DNA of 62,445 nt, counting the filler, from Dugesia japonica (taxonomy: Eukaryota), in the NCBI GenBank assembly GCA_001938525.1. It is 6 parts of 6 records of this genome, joined end to end, with 100 filler letters (N's around TTAATTAATTAA, not from the genome) between each part and the next. Parts side by side here need not be neighbours in the genome. Positions count along the whole stretch, not along the records: positions 1 to 8,462 come from MQRL01575401.1; 5 more parts are not named here. One strand, 5' to 3'. Within the stretch, counting starts at the first letter, position 1, and every line of letters begins with the position of its first letter. The translations under genes and the position numbers were made by a program. Positions 1-61,431 of this stretch are shown here, in pieces. A model generated the notes under the pieces. It did no database searches. It was given only the letters and a program-made list of their open reading frames with translations, and was not told the DNA's origin.

Positions 1-581
1 AATAGGGAAACAACGATTTGAATACTCATATAGCAGCGTACTTATAAAAAAGAACAATAAATACGAATTTTACCAAAAATGGGGACTAGAAACTGACAAC
101 ACTAAACTCATGTGGCATAATCGGTTGGCTGAATAATATCAACAATAAAATTTAATAAAGACAACTGTGAAAATTATTAATTAAAATATCCAAATCAAAT
201 AAATAAAGAAAATTTTCATTTATTAATAAAGAAACCCAAAAGTTAATTAAAATTAATCTAATAAAAAGGAAATATTAAAGGAAAATTTCCACATCAAATT
301 ACCAATATGTGAATTGTAAACGACTTATTAATATAAATAATAAATTAAACGAAATTTGTTTTGAAAATAAAATTAAAAGAGAAACGAAAACTCCTGATCT
401 CTTCGATAAACATCAATCTAAAACTTACTTCTTTTTAATAAAATGATTAGGTATAATTATTTTTATTTTTTTTAATAACACAACAATTATCTCTTCAAAA
501 AAAATATAAAGATGAGATCAAACTCATTACCAGCTGAAAAAATGGGCGAATCAAAAACATAATAAAACAATCAATAATTGT

Positions 582-597
582 GGTCCTAAAGAGGACC
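582..597 (-). terminator. Histone-type 3' stem-loop, copy 1 (GGTCCT CTTT AGGACC followed by ACAA), not attached to a histone ORF
   Basis: Minus strand reads gagaatgagtaat-GGTCCTCTTTAGGACC-acaattattgattg. The 6-bp stem, 4-nt pyrimidine loop and 3' ACAA match the histone 3' stem-loop consensus. 21 nt are identical to the copy at 3275-3290. Confidence 0.6.
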
Positions 598-737
598 ATT
601 ACTCATTCTCAGTTTATCTAGATCCGGCATAATTTAATACAAAAAACTAATATCCAAAACAATAACTAAATTATCATCACCATAGAAAATTAATTTATTT
701 TGCTTTTGGCATCCCAATATAGTGATTTGATATATTG

Positions 738-2160: not shown

Positions 2161-2250
2161 TTTACCTATTAATTATTCAGTTGATAGTTTAATCTGTTCA
2201 TCGCTTATTTCATATAGTCAACAGTAGGTAGATAGTAGCGCACTGAATCA

Positions 2251-2436
2251 GCCCCGCCAAGGTATTTTTTCCCCAAGGTCATTGATCTAGTGTACTAGAT
2301 TCTTATTGGTTGAAATAATTCAAGGTCAAATTTTCAAGGTCAGAGTGATATAGTATACTCAGTTCTGATTGGGGGAACATTTAAAGGTAGAATGGATGTA
2401 GATCATGACATTACTATGACAATCTTTATTAGGTCA
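2251..2436. promoter_or_regulatory. Cluster of GC box, nuclear-receptor (NR5A/ERR-type) half-sites and CCAAT boxes near the putative Polinton terminus
   Basis: GCCCCGCC 2251-2258; CCAAGGTCA 2273-2281; TCAAGGTCA 2320-2328 and 2334-2342; AGGTCA 2431-2436; ATTGG at 2305 and 2368; short hairpin atctag-tgta-ctagat 2285-2300. Confidence 0.45.
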
Positions 2437-2696
2437 ATGTCAACTATCATCCAGGCAGAAATAATATGAAAGTTCTCCGGGCAGACTTAGTATTAAAATT
2501 TCCTGTACAGGTTTAATATTTTTTGTTTTGTTGTATAAATTTTTTTTGTTTTAATTTATTAATTTAAAATGTCATTTTTTTAAACATTTGTTTTAAGTAT
2601 ATTTGTTACACTACTAATGAAAATAAAAAACAATTTTCAAACAAATATTTATTTGATAACATATAGTTAACAATCAAAATAGTCAAATTTATCTGT

Positions 2697-3230
2697 TTAT
2701 TTTTCTAAAAAGTCCGCACCTTTAATTATCAGTATTTCTTCTTCTATCATTGGTACATCTTCGACTGTTTTGTACATCGACCATCATTTCAACATCTGTA
2801 TATATTGTATATTTTCTAAGTTATTCATTATTTAAATAGTAAATAAATAAAAATATCATACCTATAGCTTCTACAAATGTTTCCTTCTCCTCTTCTTCAT
2901 TCAATTCTACAAAATTTTGTTGATTTTCATTAGAATAATTGATATCAATATATTCAACCATATCATCTATAACTTTATCTAAATTCATATATTGATAAAA
3001 TGAAAAATATTGATTTTGTTTATATTGACCATTGTTGCAACTTTATTTTCTTTGTTAAACTTGCATTCTTATTGCACACCTACATTACTCAAGCTCTTTG
3101 TATACTTGCATTGATGTTAAATTTTCTTTGTTTAACTTTCATTCATGTTGCACATGTATGACTCATGTTTTTGATGACTTGCATCTGTATTGCATTTTCT
3201 TTGTTTAAGTTTCTTTATCGAACTTATAAT
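2697..3230 (-). pseudogene. Small spliced acidic gene downstream of polB (Polinton accessory gene, degraded)
   Basis: Exon-like blocks DKVIDDMVEYIDINYSNENQQNFVELNEEEEKETFVEAI and ...EDVPMIEEEILIIKGADFLEK* are separated by a 46-nt GTATGA...TAG intron (2861-2816). There is a possible 51-nt intron (3029-2979), ~74-bp internal repeats at 3046-3215 and AATAAA on the minus strand near 2650. Confidence 0.4.
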
Positions 3231-3274
3231 TTTGAGCCCAAAAGAGGATTGATATACTCTCAATCCATATTTGT

Positions 3275-3290
3275 GGTCCTAAAGAGGACC
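3275..3290 (-). terminator. Histone-type 3' stem-loop, copy 2, in sense orientation downstream of polB
   Basis: Minus strand gtgaacgtgtact-GGTCCTCTTTAGGACC-acaaatatggattg lies 123 nt after the polB TAA (3414-3416). A 47-nt GTATGA...TAG intron-like segment (3374-3328) lies between them. Confidence 0.7.
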
Positions 3291-3413
3291 AGTACACGTT
3301 CACATATATACATTTTTCTTCTTTTTCCTAATTATAAAAGTTTTAAATATTATCTAAATAAAATAAAGTCATACCTTGAAGTAGATTGGATTGATCTTGA
3401 TTGATGAAAAGTA

Positions 3414-6400
3414 TTACAATGTATAATGCCCGTATGGTAAGCTTAAATTTTTTTCTGTCCATATTCGTTTATCATCCTTATTAGACAGAGCTACTTTCTT
3501 ACTTTTGATACTGCAGAGCTGATGATTTATTGATGTTATTCGAAATTGCTCTACTGAGACCGTTTCATTATTGTTATAACAGTCAGGATATGACTGATGA
3601 CAAATTCCAGTGTTTTTCAATGTTATGGCCTTAGCTTTTATTGATTCTTTCTCGCTAAGTAGGCTATAACACTTCGGTCTCAAAAATATCCATTCTTGAT
3701 ATTTCTTCCCTTTACTCTCATCNNNNNNNNNNNNNNNNNNNNNNNNNNNNNNNNNNNNNNNNNNNNNNNNNNNNNTGTTGTAATTGGACGTATCTAATAG
3801 CTGATCCTTCTTCATTAATCCGGTAAGTTTTTTCAAACTTATGTCTACCACTTCTAGGAAGAAACTATCGGTATCACCGGCTACAATATTTATCTTACAA
3901 TTCTCTTCCTGTCTGTACTTTTCCAACTGAATGTACTGTAATTGGTACATTACTGACTTTGAGAGGTCTAGTACAGTCTGTCCGATGTAGCTCGGTCGAT
4001 CCAAACAAACAATAGCTTTGTTCATTAAAACAGCTATTAGATCATTATCAATTTTAGTTGTTTTTCTGAATCCAGCTTTTGATGTATATGTCATCAATTT
4101 TTTAGCCAAATTACACAATCTTAAATTAATTCTTTTCTTTAAATTCTCAACTGTTTTACCATACAGGCTATTATTTATAAGGTTATAATAATTCTTCTCC
4201 AACTCTGATTTACATTCTGATCTTAATTTAGTGTTAACATCTATATATTGTTTGAAAATAGATGCCTGGCTGAACTTTACTTCTCTATGAACCTTTGTTA
4301 TTTGTACACCCAATTGCAAATAAATTTGCAGCAATCTCCAATGTGTAACATAACTTTGTTTCGGGTAATGAGTCAGCATTAATATTTTCACCTTACTACC
4401 TGAAGCACTTTGATGTTCTGCTGCAACAGGTAAATCATTTAGTTTATCTTGGATTTCTGCTGGTATAACCATATCTACTTCCAATGTGTATCGATATGGT
4501 AACAATTTGAGATCTCTTATTCTACATTCTTTCAATACTAAATCCAATCCAGTATATACCAACTCGAAATCGCAATAGGGCAATTTCTGACTTAATGCCC
4601 ATTCACATAGATTATTAATATCTATATATAATAAATCTGTATTTTCATTACTTACAACATGGTGTTTACTTACAAATGTTAGCCCGCCTCTTATACCCCC
4701 TTCAAAAAAGGTATACAAATCATTATCTGTCAACAATTCTATAGGCTCATTTAATGACATCAATGCAGATGCTCAACTCATACCCGGGATGCCAAAGAAT
4801 GTTAATGGCTCCAAATTATTGTGTGCCAAAGATTTATTTCTGAACTGTTGAAAGAAATCGGCTAACAAAAACACATCTAGTTTCAAATATACCAGCATAC
4901 AAAAGAGTGTTGCATCTTGTTATAGTCAAAATTTCGACTGCTTTTTGATAATCTTGCTCACTAACTTCCTCCCATCTTGGTGGTATTGTTGTTTCACCCA
5001 GAACTTGCAAACTGGTTGCATAATTATAAGGAAATATCCCCTTTGAGATTGTTAATCTGCTATCTTTAATTTAATTTGCTGTCTTTTAAGGATTTGACTG
5101 CTTCGTCCAATGAAGAATTAATAAATTAGTACGAGTCAATAAATCTGATTGTAATTTCTTTCAGATGTCCAATGAGACATAGGAATTTTTCTGATGTTGT
5201 TGGTATACACGATATGGTCAATGCGGAAATTTATTTAATCCGTACTTTAATATGTGGTGGAGGTCATATCCTCTCAAATTATGGAAGACTACTGGTAATT
5301 GATAGTTTATTCTTCTGCTCAAATTGCATTTATTACAGGCAGCTTCTATATACTTACCTGTAAAATGGTCATGATCCCGAACTGGATTACATAAAGGTTT
5401 TTTACACAAATGACATATTGTACTATGTTTAAATTCGATTTCTTGGTCTGAGCTCATAATTCGTTTCTTTTTCCTTCTTTGATATAATATAGATATACTA
5501 TATTATTACCAATTTCCTCCACTGCCTTTAGAAATTCATATAGGCATTCATTTTCAATAAACTGGCTGTATTTGACTTCATTGCTAAAGTTATTTACCAA
5601 CAACAGTCCAGCTGAAACAGCTAAATGTTTCTGGAATTTTTTTTCATCGCTTGGTAATATTGATTTGAAATCACCATATATTTAAAAAAGGGTGGAGTTA
5701 TAGTTTTGGAGTAATCTTAAAATTCTAGATTCTTTTCTCTCGGCATCTTGCATAATATGGTGGCCGTCTGAATTCTCTCGCAAAGTGGCTCATGAGTATT
5801 GTAAGCAGTATTATCCTTAAATTCATTAAGACAATTTTCACACCAGATTGATTGAATTCGAACATCACCAATTTTAATATCCCTGTTCATCAATCTATTC
5901 AAATTCATTATTACAATAAATTGATCTTATCTCCATCGCATTTACACCGATGTATAATGTCTAAATTCGGATGCTTCATGATAACATCTTCATCGTCCTC
6001 AATTGATTAAGGATTCCATGAGAAAACATTAATTTATAAGCCCGGGTTTTGTTTTTTCAAATTTTGGTATATCTGTAAGCTTCATTGGCATGTCCTCTTC
6101 ATCAAATACAAGTTCGGACATGTATTTTTGATAATTGGACACCCTACATTTATTATCTTTAACTTTATCTTGTTTAAGAATAGCGAAGATACTATATATA
6201 AAACACTTATTGTCAGTGTTCTGAATATTTAAAATTGCTTTTTTTTATAAAAGTTGACTGGGTAGGTATATAACTAAGGCCAGATAATCGGCTTATATCA
6301 GATACCTTGGTAATCTTAAAATATATTTCCAGTATGCTGCTCAGTATCCAACTAGACCCGAGTTCGCTTCGTATAGCTATCTTTTCCTTTGACTGTTTTA

Positions 6401-7069
6401 TTCCATCTTCAAAAAAAGAATTGCTTAATGCAACAGCTTGATTCGACAATCTACAAGTTTTTGTTTCTTCTTCTTTTTCGAATTCAAATTGGATCTTGAT
6501 ATTTTTTAATTCTTCAATAANTTTGAATAACTGCTCAATCAATGAGTTTGGTAAAACGATTTCTCTCGTATTCCACCTTGAAACATCCATTTTTAATATC
6601 TGGTGACATTTATATAAGTCACTTTCTATTATCACATCTTCATTGAGGGAGCCAACAACTTGTGCTTCTTCTTCACCTATAAAACTTTGCATGGCAATAT
6701 CTTCTTCATCCATTTCATCTATGATTTGAAAATTGCTACAATCATCTTCAATTATCTGAGATTCCACCTTTATTTCCTCATTTGAGATAACTAATAAATC
6801 TTCTTTTCGTTTTTTCATTGGGGGACGATCTATCTCTTTATCTAATATCATCCTTAATACTTGTTTCTTATTTATTCTAAACTGCCCTAAGTGGTCTGCA
6901 TGCAACCTATAAAAGTCTAAATATTCACCTATTCATATAGACCTACATGATGGGCATATGTAATACTTTTCCCCATAAAAGGATTAAGCATAGTATCTCT
7001 CCATAATACTATGGCAGTCACCTTTATGAGTCCGATTTGTACAAGAATGTTTGTACATTGTACAACATT
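3414..7069 (-). pseudogene. polB: Protein-primed DNA polymerase B of Polinton type, with endonuclease-VII-like insert; frameshifted
   Basis: ORFs 6213-6905, 5717-5908, 5218-5457 and 3414-4763 plus intervening frames give DNKCFIYS, GDFKS (ExoI), CHLC...VRDHDHFTGKY...CNKCN (endo VII-like), FHNLRGYD (ExoII), RFIDS, GIFPY, LKLDVFLLAD (ExoIII), EGGIRGG, YIDINNL (motif A), NNSLYGKT (motif B), GDTDS (motif C) and LRPKCYS. The N-terminus has a CPSC...H..H zinc-finger-like segment. Confidence 0.93.
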
Positions 7070-7987
7070 CTGGAAAAAATAAGTTGATTACATTAAAGTT
7101 TCATTTAAAAAGTATCATAAATTAAATTATAAAATAAATAAAAACTAATTTTTATCATAAACAGGAGCAGCAACAACAAGAGTAGCAACAACAGAAGCAT
7201 CATAATTCTAAAATAAATAATTTTAACAACTATCAACTGTTGATAATAAGTTTGCTTTAATTAAACTCTTCCTCTTGATACATCATTCACCTTGATTTAA
7301 ATTATTATAATTCTAAAATAAATTAATAATCATTAAATAATAAAAGTAAATTTACATTATCCATCATTAAACTTGTCGAATTCATATTTCGTTTATCGTT
7401 TATATTGACCATAACCTGAATGCGCATAATTAATAATATTGAAAATAGTTTACCTTTTCTTCGCTTAAATTATTATTTTTGATAATCTAAAATGTATATA
7501 TATAAAAGAGATATTAAAAATAACAAACTTACGTACCAAAATTATCGCTTTTAAAAATAGTTTTAATAAAAATGTGAAAATTTTTAAAAGTATCTACTTT
7601 AGTTTTTCTATCCCCTTTGTATGTGTGTATCATAATTTTTTCTATCCCCATTGATAAGGTGTATCAATAATTTTAAAATACCACAAAGTAGTATATTTAG
7701 TTGTGAAAAGAAATAATTTTTTTTGATATAATTTTAAAGTACTGCAACGTAGTATATTGTTACATTTACCAAGTTATTAGTCATGACAATAACAAAGGCA
7801 TGTTTTTGATTATAACAAAGGTCAATTAACTGCTTTATATTTTAATGATTTTAACAAAGATTAATTAATTATTTTTAAATTTATATAAAAATAAATCAAA
7901 CAAATATTTTCATATAATACATTTATTTACATGCAACATATACATTTTCAACTACAATGTTGATTATTTTTCACATAACGTCAATTT

Positions 7988-8292
7988 TCAGTTAGAATGT
8001 TGATTTTTAAGCCACAATTGACAATTTTGACCGCCGGTTGTTGTAAACAGATTTTGAAATCTAAATTTGCTAAATTCAATTGGCTTGGATATTTTTGAGA
8101 GATGTGAGACCAACAAATGTAGATAATAAAATCCAAGCGGATCAAAAACTGAAATAATTCAGTTTCCAACAAGATTTGATGTATCAGTATTGACGATTAA
8201 GGCTTTATTAACTAGAAAGTATGATAGTTTGTCTAATGGATACACCCCAACCATGACGATCCCAACAATTTTGATCCGACTTGATTAATCTG
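7988..8292 (-). pseudogene. Adenain-like (adenovirus/Polinton) cysteine maturation protease, degraded
   Basis: Manual translation with one frameshift gives QINQVGSKLLGSSWLG/VYPLDKLSYFLVNKALIVNTDTSNLVGN*IISVFDPLG...RFQNLFTTTGGQNCQLWL. This matches the GVYPxD, LIVNTD, FDxxG and Q....CGxxC pattern. The catalytic His segment is deleted and the Cys is mutated. AATAAA follows on the minus strand (7922-7927). Confidence 0.75.
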
Positions 8293-8364: not shown

Positions 8365-8460
8365 TTAGATATTGTTTACACTAACATTAGTATTTATTTG
8401 GATTTTGCTTTCAAATACTCCATATATTATAACATATGCTGGCGCAGTCAAAGCTTTAGC
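8365..8460 (-). CDS. C-terminus of Polinton major capsid protein (double jelly-roll), 5' part beyond the scaffold edge
   Basis: AKALTAPAYVIIYGVFESKIQINTNVSVNNI* resembles the Polinton MCP end (F..AL....IVYAEF...I.ID....V). It lies directly upstream of the protease. Confidence 0.55.
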   Translation of the reverse strand, partial: AKALTAPAYVIIYGVFESKIQINTNVSVNNI

Positions 8461-10110: not shown

Positions 10111-10789
10111 TTAACATTATCTAAATTTCATTTAAAAGGAGTTGGTTCATCATGCCGAAAAAAGCTTTCAATATCCTCTATTGTCGGTTTTTCATCTGGA
10201 AGAAATGAGTAGACAGTTTCTTCATATTTTTGTTAAAACTTGTCGATATTTGATTGGTTTTGACAACAAATGGCTTGTTTGCAATTTGAATTTCTTCTGA
10301 CTTCAAACATTGATCTTTAATTATTTCAAAATTAGAGCCAGGATTTAAATTTTTGATTTTGGCAGGTAGCTTATTAGCTTTTATTATACGGGATTCTTTA
10401 TTAAGTTTCAATTTAGACAAAGAGGAATCAGATTTTACAGTTTGATTTGTAATGTTGTTTTTATGGATAGAGATTATCAAGTGTTGTATCCATTTCTTTG
10501 ATATTTAAGTTGATAAGTGAAAGAACAAGTGCAAAAGGTTTAAATCAAGTTTTTGCTAAATCTAGATTTTGATAAATAATGCGTATTAGCAATATAAGGG
10601 ATATAATTAACTAATTAATTTAAACAATATATGTATTTATATTTGTGTCACATAATTCCTATCGTAAGATCTTTGATTTATAATTAATGTTACATCTTAT
10701 GTAATATTAAGAAATGGAAATTATTATATCATAATTTAACCTATGATAAATGAACACATAGGTTGATATTTGATATAAGCAATTCTTTA

Positions 10790-12498
10790 TAAGCAATTCT
10801 TTCCGTGTAGTACAATATCTTTTCACGTGACTCGTCATTGCGTGTGACCCATATGCAATTACTCTTCATTGCCCATTGTTGTCCTTTTGAGATAGTATTA
10901 CTCCAATTGTATTGAAACTCGCATCCGTGTCCAAATTAAATCCTCTCTTTATACCTGGAAAACATAATATTGGAGAAATCATTACTTCTTCTTTCATTCT
11001 ATTAAAAAATTCATCTAATTCGTTTGCCCATTCAATTTTCTGGTTACTTGGTCCGCTACACAGTTGTTCCAGCAATCGAGCTTTTTTTGAATAATCTTTA
11101 ATAAACTGGCGATAGTAATTTCAAATTCTCAAAAAGCCTATCATCCTTTTAACGCATTTTGGTTAAACAACGTTCTGTATTGCATCTATTTTAGTTGGAT
11201 CTGTTTTGACACCTTCTTTAATGATAACGTGTTTCAAATATTTTATCTCTTTTGCATGAATTGAAATTTCTCTGGATTAACTCTTAAGCCAGCCTTCTTA
11301 ATTTCTGTTAATACTTTATTGATTATTCCATAATGTTGCTCCTTTTAATTTTCCGATTACTTTATTCATTATTTCCTGGGATGTAACTGGTGCTGCTGCA
11401 ATTCTAAAAGGCATTCTATTGAAACAAAATTGCCCTTGTTTAGTCGAAAAAGACGTTTTTTCTTGAGCATCTTCACTGAGTTCCACTTGATAATATGAAT
11501 TACATGAATTGTTTTTGACACATCTTTTGTTTGTTGTTCGCTTCTAAAATTGTATCTTCTCTCTTCTAGTCTAGGTTTACTAATGTTCGAATAAAATTCT
11601 TCTGTTCTGTGACCCGGTCTTTTATATCTACCGCATACAACTTCTGTGCTCACCATTCTGATATGACCAATCTTACTACACTCAAAACATTTTGGTGGTT
11701 TCTTGTCTGAGGAATTTCTACTTAAATGCCCTTTATTGTGACAAGTCCAACATTAAACATGAGAATTTTTCGGACACTCTCTTTTTGTATGCCCATAACT
11801 CTGGTATGTCTAACACTATGGTTCTGTTCTTTTTGAATTTCTCTCAATATTTTGTCTCCTTTCTCCACTACGTTCTCCGAAACGTTCTCCACGTGTTTCA
11901 CCAGCGTAACTTTTTACTACGTTAATAGGTTCTCTTCTTTCTATTTTTTCAACCGAAGATAACGTTTTTTTATGTCTTCTACTTTCTCCAATTTTCGCAT
12001 GATAATCTCTTCTTCTGCTTTTTTACTATTTGCACAAATTATTAGCATTGTTGATAAGAATTTTTCTTTCGTCAACTCTCCATTTGCTAAATATTTATCG
12101 ACCAAATCTTCCACTTTTTTAAAATACACCTCAAGTTCTTCATCACCACGTTGATAGCTTACAAGATTTTGTAAATCTATTATTTTGTCTCTCTTACTCT
12201 CAAAAACTAATCGCAATCTTTCTCGATATCCATCAGCTTTCTTCAATGTCTTCACATATGCTTCCATTAAATCTTCATGAAGCAAATATGTTACCTAACG
12301 TACCTGATATTTCTTAACAATGATGTTCTTTGGCTCAAAGTATATTTCATACCGTTTAATAAACTTTTCTAGATCATCGCCTCTGCAAAATATGTTTGGC
12401 AACATTTTTTCTGTGATTGCATCAGTGTTTACCACTGCCACCATGTTAGGAGAATTTGGAAAACTCCTCGAATCATTAACATCAAAATTCAATTCCAT
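10790..12498 (-). mobile_element. Ty3/Gypsy LTR retrotransposon remnant A (gag + RT end/RNase H connection; protease and most of RT deleted)
   Basis: gag-like ORFs 12295-12498 and 11941-12285; degenerate zinc knuckles (CFECSKIGH, CGRYKRPGH); PILCFP...LDTDASFNTIGVILSQKD. Confidence 0.85.
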
Positions 12499-13493
12499 AA
12501 AACTTATTTCAAATAAAAACTATATCCTTCATTGTTCGTTTAAACAAACAAATTAAAACTTCATGCTTTAATCGGAAATTATTTTCAAAATTTAAAAATT
12601 TATATTTAAATCTTAATTTAAATTAATTTGATAATTTTACAGAAAATAATTATTTTTTAATAACACATCATTTTAAAATTTTCATAAACTTTTAAAACAA
12701 AAATAAATGATCATTCGTATTAACAAATAATTTAAATAATTTTAGAAAATTTTAAAACTAAAAAAATTGATCATTTAAAATTTTCAAAACAAAATCCCTA
12801 TTAAATAATCATTTTAAAATTTTCTGTACTTTTAAAACAATATTAACATTTCCAAATATTTTAATTTCTTAATTAATTTGTGATTTTGAATTTTTTTTAA
12901 AAAAGATTTTTTAAAAAAATCTTCAACCAGAGCGAAAAACATTTTTACTCGCTTCTAAACTACTCACTATATATATCGATGAATCAGAAGTGATTTTGTT
13001 TATATTTTTGTAATTTAATAAATATTTGTATTAGAATGACTTTGTATTCTAACCTAACGTGGCAATCACACAGGCTTTAATAAACAGACTGTTACCAGAT
13101 TTATTTGAAGGAAGAATGAATCTAAAAACCTTCATTTTAGATTGCCGGAGATTTTTCGACATCGCAAATATTTACGAAAATTCAAGAGAATTAATCATCA
13201 AAACAATGATCAACATAGAATTAATTCCAATTTATGAAGCAGTTGAAATCAACATTTCTAGTTTTAAAGAAAGATTGAGAAAAGCATTTCAAAAGCCAAG
13301 TTCACTTATTAATGATCTTAAAAAATCATGGATTATCAAAAATGATCGACTACTGCGGAAAAATATTTTCAAGATATAAATCGTATGATGGAAAACGTTT
13401 TGCGACACAAATGGGACAAAAATGAACTAACGAAGTATTTTTTAATTCATTGCTTTGATGACAAAGAAATTCAGGAAGAAATAAAAATGAGAG

Positions 13494-13707
13494 TGTTAGT
13501 TACTGATAAACTTTCTGCAATGTCCATTAAATTCAATAAATTTTTATTTATTACACAAAATTTCAAATCTTCAAATCTTTCTAAAAACAATGTCTTTAAA
13601 AGCATAATATTTAAACAAATATTTTAAATATTTTTAAAAATTCTTGAAATCTTTTATAACATTTTCTTCAAAATTTAAATTGCGATTTTTAATTTTTAAT
13701 CCTTACA
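13494..13707 (-). repeat. 3' LTR of Gypsy element B (~214 bp)
   Basis: Bounded by TGT/ACA and adjacent to the PPT. Its terminal 17 bp (aatttttaatccttaca) recur at 17612-17628, the residue of a mostly deleted 5' LTR. Confidence 0.8.
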
Positions 13708-16700
13708 TCCCCCTCGATTAAAAGAATTTTTTAAGCTTTTCTACTTTTCTTTCTAACTCTTTTCCCTTTGTATTTCGTATACGATATCTTCTAAATGTAC
13801 CTTATCCGTGATCTTGTATGGACCAGCGTATCTTTCATGTCTTGTGTTTATAGTTTAATCAATACTTCGTCTTTCACTTGAAATTGTTTTTTTGTAGGTG
13901 TTTCTTCCATGAACTCTTTGTCATCTTTTTGGCTGTCAAACCATTGTTCTCTGTGAATTCTCCTACAGAATACTAATTTTGCTGGTGATATCCCCAATGT
14001 CTTTAACCTTGTCGCATCCATTATGTATTCACTCTCCGGTATCATGTTACTCCAATCCTTTTATTCTATCTTCATCTGCACCTGCGTTAATACAGTTTCT
14101 AATTGTGCGGAATTGTCTCTCTATAATTCCGTATGTATTGTGATGGTACGGATTTGAAAAGTGTATATTCATCGATTCCATCAGATTCTTGAATTTTTTC
14201 GATTCAAATGTCTTACCACTGTTTACGTGACTTTTCTTGGTGCTCCAAATCTCAGGATCCATTTTTCCATTATCACGTTTTTGATTGTCTCATCATCTTG
14301 CTTGCTGATTGCCGTTAGGCTTGCGTATCGATTGTATTGGTCTATTATTCCACATATATATCTTCGTCTGTTTACAGTCTGTCGAAAAGGCCCACATATT
14401 TCTATATATATCTTTTCAAATGGACAATTTGCGCCTAATTTTACTGTTGTCTCTTTTTTGGCCACCGTATTAACTTTGTTCTTTTGACACGCTTCACACT
14501 GTCTTATCACTTCTGTGATTGTCTTTTTCAGTACTTCCATGTCGTAGTTGCTGATTATGTTGCTGATCATTTTCTCTGTCCCTGCATGTATCAACAATGT
14601 ATGTATCTCTTTGATCACTGATATTCTTTTCTCTTTTGGAATCCAAATTTTCCCATCAATTGTTTTCACTATATTATTTTCAACTCTATACTTTGAATTC
14701 TTTCCTTCTTGAATATCTTGTTTAATTAGTTTGATTTCCTCTATTTTTTCTTGCCATTTAATACTATCTATCTTTATCGTCTGATTTATCTGTCTTGTTT
14801 TCATCTACACCATCTTTGGATCTTCGTGTTTAGATCTTCAAGTGCACGTTCCGCATTTCATTCTTGAGAGCATATCTGCGTTTGTGTGTTTTTCGCCTAG
14901 TCTATATATTAATTCCATGTCTAAGCTGCTAAGGTAATTCATCCATGTCTGGAATTGAGGTGTTGTCGGTTTGTTTGTCTTTTTTATGAATACGATGGTT
15001 TTGTGATCTGTTGTCGTTATGAATTTTTTTCCATATAAATAATGTTTAAAGCGGTTGCAGAAGTAGTAGATTGCTAGTAATTTCTTCCGTGTGATACAGT
15101 AACCCTTCTTATGTGATGTCATTGCATGTGAGCCAAAAGCAATAACTCTTTATCTTCCATCATCATCATTTTGTGATAGGACCCTCCTATTGCGTCGAAG
15201 TTAACGTCAGTATCTAAAATAAATGTCTTCTTTATATCAGGAAATCCTAAAATAAGTGCTTCTATCAGTGCTTGTTTCATTTCTGCAAAAGCTTTCTCAC
15301 ATCCATCTGACAATATTAGCTTCATGCTGTTACTTTCACATAATTCGTCTAGGGCTCTTGGTTTCTTTGAGAAATTCTTGATGAATCTTCTGTAATAATT
15401 GCATGTTCCGAGGAAGCTTCTCAGGTTATTTACACATTTGGGTTTCTCAAAGTTTTTGGTAGCTTTGATTTTCATTGGATCTGTTCGAATTCCTTCTTTA
15501 TTTATTATGTGGTCAAGAAATTTCACTTCTTTGCGTAATAGGTGACATTTTTCTGGATTCACTCGCAACCATGCCTTTTAGATCCGCTCTAATATCTGAC
15601 CCAGAGTTATATAATGTTCTTTTAGTCCTTCTGAGAATATCATTATGTCATTCATTTACAACATTGCTCCATCTAGACCGTCCAATACTTTTGTCATTAG
15701 CTCTTCAAATGTTCCTGGGGCTGCTGCTAAGCTGAATGGAAATCTTGAGAAACAATATTGACCATTTTTTGTCTAAAAGGCTGTTTTCTGTTGACTCTTT
15801 TTCTAACGGTACCTAGTAATACGCGTTTCCCTAGTCTATGGTACTGCAATATTTAGCTCCGTACAAATTTCCAAACATTTCTTCTACGTTTGGCATCAGG
15901 AAAGCTTGTCGTTCCGTTACTGTATTTAGTTTTCTGAAGTCCAAGGAAAGTCTCACATCCTTTCTTTCTTTCTTCTAGACGCATATCAGTGGTGTGTTCT
16001 ACTGCGAATTACATTTTATTATATTATTAGCGTTCGCTAAATTATTTATAGCTGTATCTATTTTTCTTCTAGATTCAATGTTTGTCTCCAAGGCTTCGTA
16101 TTTATTAGGTTACCCTTTGTCACTATCTTGAGATCCGCCAACGTTGTGCATCCGACATCCCAGTTATCTGCCATGAAACTCCTCCATGTTTTAAATTACT
16201 TTTTACAGTTTTTCGTCTCGTTTGTCATCAAAATTTTCAGAGCTCTCTGTTCTCTTTCAGAATCCTCGATTTTAAGACCAAGCCTTGCATCTATGTTGCA
16301 GATCCACTGTTCATCCTCACAATCCTTTGTTTCTTTCGTTAAACGGTATCCAAACTGGCATTGCATGTCTATTCCTGTGACAAGATTCGGACTCATTTCT
16401 TTTACTACGGTGAATTGTACTATTTTCTTATTGTTTCCGATCTGCACTTCTACATATGTCTTACTAGCAATGTTCATTCTGCTATTATTTGCACATTTTA
16501 ACACGTCATCAGTTCCTATCAGCTCTACATTTGCCAGACTTCTAAAAATATTGAGGCTCATCACGTTCATCTTTGCACCTGTATCCAAAAGGCAGTCCAT
16601 ATATTTTCCTTGAATTCTAACTTCCACACTGGGCCTACCTTTCATTCTATCATAATTTTACTTGTTTATTCTCTTCTAATACCATTATTTCGTTATCACT

Positions 16701-17628
16701 ATTTTTCGTTTCTTTCATTATATTGATATCTGCATTATACATATCTTTGAAATCTTTCTTTAAAAAGGCATAAACTTTACTGTTGACTCTCTCCTCTTTA
16801 GTTTCATCTTTTAAACTATTATTTAAACTACTTTTACTATAAATATGTATATTGCGATCTGGATTGTTTTTCAGTTCATTGCTCTAATCATCTCGACTTT
16901 TGGATGGAGCTTGTCTGTTTGAGGTCTCTTCTTTATAGCTGTTTGTCTCCTCGTCATAATAATAAATATTATCTCCTCTCTTTATGCACTCTTCATCCTT
17001 TTCTACCATTGCGTTTACATATCTAATGCCGTTTCTTTTCCTGAATCCATTATTAACTTATGTCTTCCCACTCGGTTTTGGATATCTGGTTTTTTCGTCA
17101 TATTTTCTGTTTGTTTCCTCTCTTTGGTTGTATTGTGCTGCTTCGTTTCTTTGTTCGTTATTCTGTTGTCTTCTATCATTAGTCCACACACCTCTTTTCT
17201 CTAAACTAATATAACATTGTTCTGTATGATGTCTAATTTTTCCACATCTTGAACATCTAATTTTGTCACAATTCCTTCTTATATTATTCTCTGATCCCCA
17301 TGCGTAACACATTTTTTTCTTTTCTGGACAATTTCTGCTGATATGATCTATCTTCTGACATGACCAAAATGTAATTTCTTCTTTATCTTCACTTTGAGTT
17401 CAGTTAACTCCTAAGAAACGTTCTTTTGTCATGTCTCTTTTTACTGCATCGCTGTAACTCTCCACCGTATTTATATTGTCTGTTTCTTTCAGGTCCTCCT
17501 TTAGTTCATTATTTATTTTTATTGTTTCAAATATCTCTTCCGAGTTAACTAGTTTGCCTCTTTAAATCTTTATTTTCATTTTTTTAACTATTGAATATGA
17601 ATTCTTTTGCCAATTTTTAATCCTTACA
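13494..17628 (-). mobile_element. Ty3/Gypsy element B, near-complete but frameshifted, inserted into element C with a 5-bp TSD GAGAG
   Basis: TGT...ACA termini flanked by GAGAG (13489-13493 and 17629-17633). Domains: gag knuckles 17058-17360, protease LLDTGA (16196-16645), RT (~15570-16130), RNase H (14838-15568), integrase HAGTEK...CEAC...KWILRFGAP (13730-14804). PPT at 13708-13716. Confidence 0.92.
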
Positions 17629-19793: not shown

Positions 19794-19889
19794 GTTATTC
19801 GAAAACGAGATTTCGGGTCTTTTAGCTATTTAGTTGATGGTTTTTCCCTATACGAAATTGTTCAATTGAGTCCTTTTGATTGTTATTAT

Positions 19890-20210
19890 AAAAATCAAAA
19901 TATGACTGTTTTATTATAATTATTATGAATCAAAATTTATCTGTTTAAATTTTATAAGAATCAAAATAAACAGTTTAAAATTAATACAAATTAAAATTTA
20001 TTCAATTTGAAATTAAAATGAATTAAAATTTAACAGCTTTAAATTAATATGAATCAAAGTTTATCGGTTTATAATTAATTTGAATCAAAATTATCAATAT
20101 AAATTTAATATGAATTAAATTTTATCTACTCAAAATTAATACGAATCAAAATTAAACAGTTTAAAATTAATATAAATTAAAATTTAAAATTGATCAGTTA
20201 GAATTAATGT
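19890..20210. repeat. AT-rich minisatellite, ~30-bp unit (aaattaatatgaatcaaaatttatcagttt)
   Basis: About 10 diverged tandem copies. Confidence 0.7.
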
Positions 20211-39674: not shown

Positions 39675-40163
39675 TTGTTTGAAAGAGTATTATTTATATG
39701 GTCAATGAGACATCCTGCCAGTGGTTACGTACAAGGCATTAATGATTTACTAACTCCATATTTCATTGTATTTTTATCAGAATTTGTCCAAGTTGGTAGG
39801 TTTATTTGAACACCCATTAGTTAGCATGCTAGTGATTCACTTATAGATTTGAATACTGCAGGGGAGCTTACGCTAAGTACTGATCCAACAGAAGATGAAT
39901 TGAAAAAGGTTGAGGCGGATTGTTATTGGTGCGTAAGTCGATTATTAGACAGTATCCAAGATCATTATACATTTGCTCAACCGGGTATTCAAACCAGAGT
40001 TCAAGCATTATCTTCTTTAATCAGTAGATTAGATTCTGAACTACATCAACATTTAAATGATCAGAAAGTGGAATATCTACAATTTTCTTTCCGTTGGATG
40101 AATAACCTTTTAATGAGGGAACTTCCTCTGCGATGTGTAATACGTTTGTGGGATACATATCAT
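39675..40163 (+). CDS. TBC1D22: TBC1 domain family member 22 (Gyp1-like Rab GAP), two internal exons (39675-39795, 39847-40163)
   Basis: LFERVLFIWSMRHPASGYVQGINDLLTPYFIVFL...VEADCYWC...IQDHYTFAQPGIQ...YLQFSFRWMNNLLMRELPLRCVIRLWDTY, with a 51-nt GT-AG intron. The gene continues beyond the scaffold end. Confidence 0.95.
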
Positions 40164-42504: not shown

Positions 42505-42657
<153 letters not shown>

Positions 42658-60874: not shown

Positions 60875-61039
60875 TATTGATCAAAAAAGGAAAGTCTCAC
60901 TTCTATGCAATATGACCCAGAAAAAAAGCTTGAAGTTTGTTCAAAATTTAGGGAATGCAATAAGCAATAACTTTTCTTTTCCCATTCCTGAACCAAAAGC
61001 TACCACGTTGCGTCGAAGCCGTTAACCAGACATCCCAAC

Positions 61040-61070
<31 letters not shown>

Positions 61071-61431
61071 TAGTCCATGCCAGTTCTAGGTTGATCGTTT
61101 AGTGCACAACGTCTATTACAAATCCCAAAAGACTCATAATATAGCAATACCCGCCTATCAATCGAATCAGAAAAGTGCCATAGTCAATCAAGCTCAAGTT
61201 TCCTTAAACTCAATCAATAACAGCTCAATTCCATTCCAATCAACTTCTTGATAAAGCCCACTATGCCCGATCCCTAGAGCCAATCCTTTTACCGAAGTTA
61301 GGGATCTAATTTGCCGACTTCCCTTACCTAAATTTAACTATATTGATCAAAAAGAGTTAAGTCTCACTTCTATGCAATATGACACATAAAACAAACTTTG
61401 TTTGTTCAAAATTTAGGGAATGCAATAAGCA
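60875..61431. repeat. ~90-bp direct repeats (60875-60966 and 61341-61431) flanking a 28S rRNA fragment
   Basis: tattgatcaaaaa...aagtctcacttctatgcaatatgac...gtttgttcaaaatttagggaatgcaataagca occurs on both sides. Confidence 0.85.
61004..61330 (-). pseudogene. 28S (LSU) rRNA fragment, non-functional orphan copy
   Basis: Reverse complements of conserved LSU segments: gctttgttttaattagacagtcggattcc...ccagttct and agagccaatccttttaccgaagttagggatctaatttgccgacttcccttaccta. Confidence 0.88.

Follow-up and report, generated by a model that had tools for sequence, protein, structure and literature searches.

A histone-type stem-loop behind the DNA polymerase gene of a planarian Polinton

Histone mRNAs of the replication-dependent class terminate with a stem-loop (Rfam RF00032) that is served by SLBP and the U7 small nuclear ribonucleoprotein (snRNP), and they are described as the only known non-polyadenylated cellular mRNAs, with no other SLBP target in human cells (PMC4604434). 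This study concerns a 62,445-nucleotide (nt) stretch of the genome of the planarian Dugesia japonica (GCA_001938525.1), joined from parts of six records and called the window below, in which a broken Polinton carries a stem-loop of this type behind its gene for a protein-primed family-B DNA polymerase (pPolB; gene polB). The histone-end machinery is known; in the literature searched, we found no account of a Polinton that uses it. We propose that the polB RNA has a lineage-specific, leaky histone-type 3' end, a reading to which we assign a probability of about 0.5.

Several described systems are close to this locus; throughout, a citation refers to the passages of a paper that deal with the point in question and not to the paper as a whole. 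In C. elegans, histone mRNAs end with GGCCCT-CTTT-AGGGCC followed by 3-6 nt (PMC1924863), and in metazoans the median distance of the histone stem-loop from the stop codon is 30 nt (bioRxiv 10.64898/2026.10.14.759114). In mouse histone pre-mRNAs, hairpin-folded downstream elements are opened by SLBP (PMC1635294). In the planarian Schmidtea mediterranea, only some histone genes carry the stem-loop, their mRNAs are poorly represented in oligo-dT libraries, and the stem-loop histone RNAs, together with poorly adenylated RNAs, feed the PIWI-interacting RNAs (piRNAs) of SMEDWI-1 (PMC10954484). Knock-down of planarian SLBP leads to stem-cell loss (PMC4603911), and knock-down of Integrator raises unprocessed histone RNA in Schmidtea (PMC6312358).

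The hairpin and its likeness to histone mRNA ends

The features on which the comparison rests are as follows.

3414-7004, minus strand: pPolB gene, frame-broken in its first two thirds and ending YGHYTL-stop (tblastn with P0001/P0002/P0004)
3291-3304, minus strand: 5' flank of the cassette, with 10 of 14 letters common with the copy at 580 (sequence comparison)
3275-3290, minus strand: histone-type stem-loop GGTCCT-CTTT-AGGACC, with a 6-bp stem and a CTTT loop (sequence, folding, Rfam)
3270-3274, minus strand: ACAAA, the predicted mature RNA end, 3-6 nt past the stem by analogy with C. elegans (sequence; PMC1924863)
3261-3269, minus strand: candidate U7-binding downstream element, like the Schmidtea H4 flank, with TTGATTG in most family copies
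3246-3266, minus strand: second hairpin, 7 bp here and 6 bp in most copies, whose 5' arm is the candidate downstream element (folding)

The first-pass annotation of this DNA had reported a perfect GGTCCT-CTTT-AGGACC followed by ACAA, 123 nt past the polB stop, and the sequence agrees: the hairpin lies on the minus strand at 3290-3275, 123 nt from the stop at 3414-3416, and ACAAA follows. It has the 6-bp stem, the 4-nt loop, the G-C pair at position 2 of the stem and the U at position 3 of the loop of the histone class, and its CTTT loop is a functional form in C. elegans (PMC1924863). The Histone3 model (RF00032) scored 23.7 bits at this place, with an E value of 0.033 window-wide. The exact histone-type pattern occurs twice in the window against 0.11 matches expected, and with one mismatch allowed, two matches arose in 1 of 100 shuffles. 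In the predicted folding of a 91-nt stretch, both hairpins form (z -3.3; 1 of 200 shuffles was equally good).

Primers for 3'-unprocessed canonical histone RNAs of Schmidtea mediterranea, given in supplement 13 of PMC6312358, provided a comparison that is independent of the window. Read in the sense direction, the H4 "unprocessed rev" primer consists of the loop T, AGGGCC, ACAA and ATGTTGATTG; the H3 primer has the same arm and ACAA and then diverges, and the H1 primer starts with TGATTG. The polB cassette agrees with the H4 21-mer in 18 of 21 letters across the right arm and flank, including TTGATTG at the same spacing, and the agreement rises to 19 of 21 with the base that is common at 3266 in family copies. 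Only two sites in the window lie within three mismatches of this 21-mer, namely the polB cassette and a second cassette at 580, as against 0 of 100 simulated windows, and none of the 80 foreign polB loci described below has a site within four mismatches. The identity as a histone-type 3' signal is thus firmer than the first-pass annotation could know, given the C. elegans CTTT loop, the Schmidtea H4 flank, the SLBP pathway and the sister copies. The hairpin behind polB is a genuine signal of the host type and is plausibly sited; any function is putative.

The earlier argument that the hairpin is undamaged although polB has many frameshifts fared less well. Several frame changes in polB were confirmed; however, the intact hairpin has no weight as evidence because most other copies diverge from this one at about 3% of positions, and 16 unchanged letters are expected by chance with P from 0.61 (3% divergence) to 0.26 (8%).

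Sister copies, RNA reads and further cassettes

Four of the 24 listed sequencing runs were aligned to 2200-3722 at 80% likeness. On this stretch, 6,084 contigs of run X1 and 814 of run X8, a small-share run, were placed, the two runs having different organism labels; therefore, the family is multi-copy. One X1 contig (3189-3463) bridges the polB stop and the hairpin, an X8 contig (3168-3337) spans the hairpin, and one X1 contig skips 3209-3329, the hairpin region. The signal is thus kept in the sister copies of both runs and, as shown below, is absent from foreign loci. At 3266, 84 X1 contigs, 27 X8 contigs and 31 of 32 reads of run X22 carry the base that completes TTGATTG. The second 7-bp hairpin of the first-pass annotation (3246-3266) is present, but its outer pair is private to this copy, and with the base found elsewhere the stem has 6 bp. 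None of the 40 best-supported of 396 differences falls within 3267-3331. In X8, two contigs run on from window position 3306 into part of another hairpin copy, immediately upstream of the cassette.

The RNA reads of X22, an oligo-dT run, cross the hairpin, with a sense depth of 30 at 3332, 27 at 3266 and 17 at 3240. Polyadenylated read-through of the site therefore occurs, an outcome that the first-pass annotation had itself named as refuting; oligo-dT libraries select against stem-loop ends, so that these reads represent read-through RNA and are mute on such ends.

What is observed is the sequence itself, its agreement with the histone ends of host H4 and of C. elegans, its presence in sister copies and RNA that reads through it; SLBP binding, cleavage, a role for the second hairpin and any cell-cycle timing are proposals. 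Our reading is supported by the sense orientation of the hairpin in the polB 3' flank and by the fact that the cassette likeness ends at the cassette edges. The first-pass annotation had overlooked two further copies.

568-611, minus strand: second cassette, with the stem-loop at 582-597 and an identical 18-mer at 580-597 (Histone3 25.4 bits; outside the Polinton)
30450-30499, plus strand: third, decayed cassette, with the stem-loop at 30463-30478, a host-type AGGGCC arm and a TTTT loop (outside the Polinton)

The element ends at 2223 and, therefore, the 580 cassette lies outside the Polinton. It is antisense to, and upstream of, an open reading frame (ORF) at 826-1397 on the plus strand that has one good relative with zinc knuckles and a gag-like part. 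The three cassettes are alike over approximately 45-50 nt and nothing beyond: between the polB and 580 copies, the likeness is 10/14 upstream, 16/16 in the hairpin and 12/14 downstream, and then falls to 9/46. The two intact cassettes, although their surroundings are unlike, agree in the AGGACC arm and in its GGTCCT partner. Both extra cassettes lie in repeat-like DNA, and with three cassettes in 62 kb, the repeats of this genome may hold many more if the window is typical. The possibility that the 580 and 30463 cassettes stand behind decayed polB tails was given no support by a profile search, and no histone remnants were visible before them by eye or in Pfam scans of some frames.

Such dispersed copies of 45-50 nt, perfectly palindromic and alike in both flanks, might belong to a DNA-level element whose histone likeness is accidental: they could be the terminus of a very small mobile unit, or a palindrome to which a protein binds. 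For the mobile unit, the types in question are presumably those with a Helitron- or LINE/SINE-type terminal hairpin; yet inspection by eye showed neither a CTRR end where one would usually lie nor a tail or a target duplication. The 18-19/21 match to the host H4 flank would not be expected by chance, and we regard a DNA-level element of this kind as very improbable.

The main competitor is a passive relic, in which a short stretch of 3' flank from a host histone gene (H4-like) was taken up as DNA and spread with several repeats, with no function for polB. Two of the three cassettes stand behind no recognised gene, H4 is the only histone whose flank matches best, polyadenylated RNA runs across the hairpin, and one X1 contig skips 3209-3329. 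That histone pieces get moved is indicated by the 3' half of a histone H4 gene at 42505-42657 on the plus strand, which is joined to an unrelated broken ORF and has no stem-loop behind it. Against a relic, the likeness is limited to the part needed for processing, with no histone coding remnant visible upstream by the same means as above; in addition, two cassettes in unrelated surroundings retain AGGACC with its matching arm, and the site is kept in the family across two organism labels. We consider a functionless relic unlikely on balance, its remaining points being taken up with the mechanism below. The H4 fragment, having no stem-loop, was unusable as an internal control; 32 nt past its stop, a stretch agrees in 10 of 16 letters with what precedes two of the cassettes on their 5' side, a likeness that may be due to chance.

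The Polinton and its relatives

The remaining features of the element are listed here.

8368-8460, minus strand: C-terminal piece of a probable major capsid protein, truncated by an assembly gap (L019 match)
7982-8272, minus strand: adenain-like protease remnant, with AATAAA at 7922-7927 behind it (ORF comparison)
3328-3374, minus strand: GT..AG segment of 47 nt, retained in RNA (read depth)
3045-3213, no strand: 73-nt tandem repeat of 2.3 copies, with a unit number that differs among family contigs (repeat scan, contig joints)
3042-3047, minus strand: AATAAA, possible read-through poly(A) signal, 367 nt past the polB stop (sequence)
2821-2988, minus strand: small acidic ORF of 55 amino acids (aa) from ATG, 25% D+E, with AATAAA at 2696-2701 and 2648-2653 behind it
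2223-2470, no strand: element end, beginning AGTAG at 2223, with an approximate inner limit (sequence; 38 RNA reads with loose letters before 2223)

The last ~500 aa of the polB product have 58-61% identity to the metagenomic pPolB proteins P0001/P0002/P0004 (tblastn), of which P0001 is DNA_pol_B_2 in Pfam. These relatives end shortly past the same YGH motif; therefore, the hairpin does not belong to an additional exon with coding sequence, the alternative that the first-pass annotation had itself named. Its suggestion that a 47-nt intron reduces the spacing to 76 nt is contradicted by the oligo-dT depth, which is 39 at 3340 and 44 at 3355 versus 40 at 3375, with no dip; in addition, no splice joint for 3374-3328 was found among the 15 listed of 87 joints. 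The contrast it drew between polB and structural genes ending in AATAAA stands only in part: the signals at 7922-7927 and 2648-2653 are present, but polB has an AATAAA of its own at 3042-3047, which weakens the contrast.

The protease remnant has 36-41% identity to ORFs of six related loci, which match Peptidase_C5/C48 weakly. The ORF tail at 8368-8460 is identical in 14 of 26 positions to the C-terminus of a 403-aa ORF that neighbours the protease of locus L019 (E 4e-8) and has no Pfam match; from position and this short match, it is probably a capsid protein. No Pfam family matched the acidic ORF. The other end of the element is lost at the gap from 8463, so that an AG-starting end is present only at 2223; an rve integrase and a packaging ATPase, present in the relatives L019 and L073, were not found in the window fragment. 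A different polB tail survives as 60 nt with 78% identity at 19849-19908 on the minus strand, where an assembly gap cuts it.

To compare other Polintons, 80 metagenomic polB loci with 28-62% identity were collected; the stop was located in 66, the other 14 being dropped for lack of the C-terminus, and 58 of the 66 have at least 150 nt downstream. None of the 66 carries a GG..CC hairpin with a 6-bp stem and a 4-nt loop within 400 nt of the stop, in a comparison of DNA that excludes the nearest relatives, P0001-P0008, with which the window polB groups in a quick protein tree. The closest stretch to the 18-mer in the foreign loci has seven mismatches. Rfam at E 5 gave no Histone3 match on 19 of the closer loci; a further 40 were scanned at the gathering threshold, which is blind to hairpins as weak as that of the window, and these are covered by the pattern scans. 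The hairpin behind polB looks like a lineage-specific trait and not a Polinton-wide one.

In locus L073, an HDV-like ribozyme (RF00094, 52.9 bits against a gathering score of 50) lies in sense orientation at 663-749 on the plus strand, 100 nt past the polB stop; a small acidic ORF comes next, and a P-loop ATPase lies beyond the ribozyme as well. This was found in 1 of the 60 loci scanned. An RNA-cleavage signal in the same slot counts towards our reading, but it also bears on a further explanation, in which processing of the cassette does take place and acts as a terminator that cuts read-through from polB into the next gene, or as a handle for piRNA silencing, and not as an S-phase timer. The ribozyme, without cell-cycle control, fills the same slot, and the 580 cassette is antisense to a gag-like ORF, both of which fit a terminator. 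For a silencing handle, the entry of Schmidtea stem-loop histone RNAs into SMEDWI-1 piRNAs and the piRNA silencing of Polintons (PMC8532177) are in favor; nevertheless, the element would pay a price for such a handle, and the cassette is found across the family. A terminator or handle of this kind seems to us distinctly unlikely. In L033, two near-identical HDV-like candidates at 2215 and 2936 on the plus strand, the first 76 nt past a 489-aa ORF, came from a home-made descriptor and were not confirmed by Rfam; the descriptor was rejected, as it missed the Rfam-confirmed L073 site and its second form matched nothing.

Histone-type hairpins were also observed elsewhere. Contig L087, a 2.3-kb CRESS-DNA virus (circular, Rep-encoding, single-stranded; Viral_Rep plus helicase), has a canonical histone stem-loop at 1235-1253 on the minus strand (Histone3 28.5 bits), 87 nt past the stop of a probable capsid gene; none of 6 Rep relatives has it. 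In L045, a strict histone-type hairpin at 306-321 on the plus strand (Histone3 20.8 bits) lies ~4.7 kb upstream of the polB stop and is not followed by ACA. Among viral contigs, no polB relative was confirmed, and looser histone-type patterns gave 14 matches, 13 of them inside, antisense to or overlapping ORFs; the exact hairpin or cassette had 0 matches in viral contigs and prokaryote genomes. Atlas searches with two neighbouring ORFs gave no usable match.

Beyond the Polinton, the window contains broken Ty3-like retroelements at 10700-17400 and 35100-35800 on the minus strand (protease, RNase H and integrase domains), exons of a host TBC1D22-type Rab-GAP gene at 39675-40163 on the plus strand and an isolated fragment of a eukaryotic large-subunit (LSU) rRNA gene at 60940-61334 on the minus strand. 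One TBC1D22 exon has 64-72% identity to named flatworm proteins across 93% or more of its length, versus 61-64% to named animals of other groups at that coverage, and 91-95% to two unnamed proteins, which fits a flatworm host and probably a planarian one.

Possible mechanism and comparison with known systems

On our reading, a Polinton family of a flatworm lineage would have taken up a host histone 3' cassette of approximately 45 nt, comprising the stem-loop, ACAAA and TTGATTG, and kept it behind polB. SLBP would bind the stem-loop, and the histone cleavage machinery would cut approximately 4-5 nt past the stem to give a non-polyadenylated polB mRNA, while escaping transcripts would run on to the poly(A) signals further down. 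The second hairpin may fold over the downstream element and set the leak, and SLBP might open it by analogy with mouse H4-12 (PMC1635294). As SLBP-dependent mRNAs would be made and translated in cycling cells, the polB output would lean to the neoblasts; this S-phase or neoblast timing is a tentative extension, about which we are more doubtful than about the 3' end itself.

Several data weigh against a functional histone-type end. The score of 23.7 bits is below the Rfam gathering score of 34, and the 123 nt from the stop exceed both the metazoan median of 30 nt and the range of ~20-50 nt expected for such signals. The H3 flank of Schmidtea differs from TTGATTG, a motif common to the H4 and H1 primers, so that the TTGATTG match may mean that the cassette descends from an H4 flank, with no U7 site in common; no planarian U7 sequence for pairing was found in the literature section examined, which lists spliceosomal small nuclear RNAs only. 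Two of the three window cassettes are away from polB. The apparent invariance of the stem refers to the 40 best-supported of 396 differences, and selection on it is no more than possible. There is no place on the stretch, the hairpin included, where many RNA molecules begin or end in X22, and X21 has only 1-3 reads a place. The unusual distance and the lack of the hairpin in all 66 foreign loci also fit the capture of a functionless flank piece.

Returning to the histone-type end, its novelty was assessed within the accessible literature, subscription journals and repeat-database reports being beyond reach; no description of a Polinton with a histone-type or SLBP-dependent end was found there. 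Term searches of PMC8502044, PMC10748475, PMC13525598 and bioRxiv 10.64898/2026.10.14.759114 returned no passage on histone ends of Polintons, and the text returned from the two Polinton papers, PMC8502044 and PMC10748475, has no mention of a stem-loop, hairpin or polyadenylation. As text in the literature, the hairpin sequence was found in its C. elegans form only.

If the reading is correct, the mRNA of a transposon polymerase would be a natural non-histone client of the SLBP/U7 pathway, and the cassette would offer a genomic parasite a simple means of bringing its replicase into those planarian cells that alone divide and are heritable. Many cassettes in genome repeats could serve as terminators, SLBP sinks or piRNA entry points. 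Knock-downs of slbp and Integrator and assays of histone 3' processing already exist for Schmidtea (PMC4603911, PMC6312358). Polinton RNA goes up on smedwi-2 knock-down. A wider proposal would be that the host histone cassette is a working signal for flatworm mobile elements, namely the Polinton and one or more unrelated repeat families, with the Polinton replicase mRNA an SLBP/U7 client confined to cycling neoblasts, and that key genes have repeatedly been provided with poly(A)-free ends in Polinton-like elements and small DNA viruses, as with the polB cassette, the L073 ribozyme and the L087 hairpin; we think this generalization improbable as a whole.

Among the known systems, the Polintons or Mavericks (adintovirus-like) share with the window the pPolB and, as weaker points, a protease remnant, a probable capsid gene and an AG-starting end, and the relative L019 has the rve integrase; they differ in lacking the hairpin at the related polB loci. 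In the L073 relative, the ribozyme is self-cleaving, would need no host factor and would give no cell-cycle coupling; still, the slot is the same, with the polB stop, ~100 nt, an RNA-cleavage signal and a small acidic ORF.

The class of replication-dependent histone 3' ends shares with the window the 16-nt stem-loop, the GG/CC base, the U at loop position 3, the following ACA and the position on the sense strand past a stop. The window hairpin differs in lying behind a 3.6-kb transposon polymerase gene at an unusual distance, in the C at loop position 1 and in a sub-cutoff score, and its RNA end is a predicted one. The C. elegans element has the same CTTT loop and ACA and one base pair swapped (T-A in the window for C-G), and its hairpin stands in a longer conserved block, of which AATCC and a later AATAAA also follow in the window (PMC1924863). 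The window host is, however, a flatworm, its AATAAA is ~230 nt further on and not adjacent, and the AATCC likeness may be due to chance.

The Schmidtea primers exclude the host left arm and most of the loop, the right arm has an A in the window where the host has G, and the H3 flank diverges past ACAA; the window nevertheless shares the loop T, the AGGRCC arm and ACAA with both the H4 and H3 flanks, and TTGATTG with H4 as well (PMC6312358). Finally, the downstream element of mouse H4-12 is folded in a hairpin (PMC1635294), as is predicted for the candidate element behind polB.

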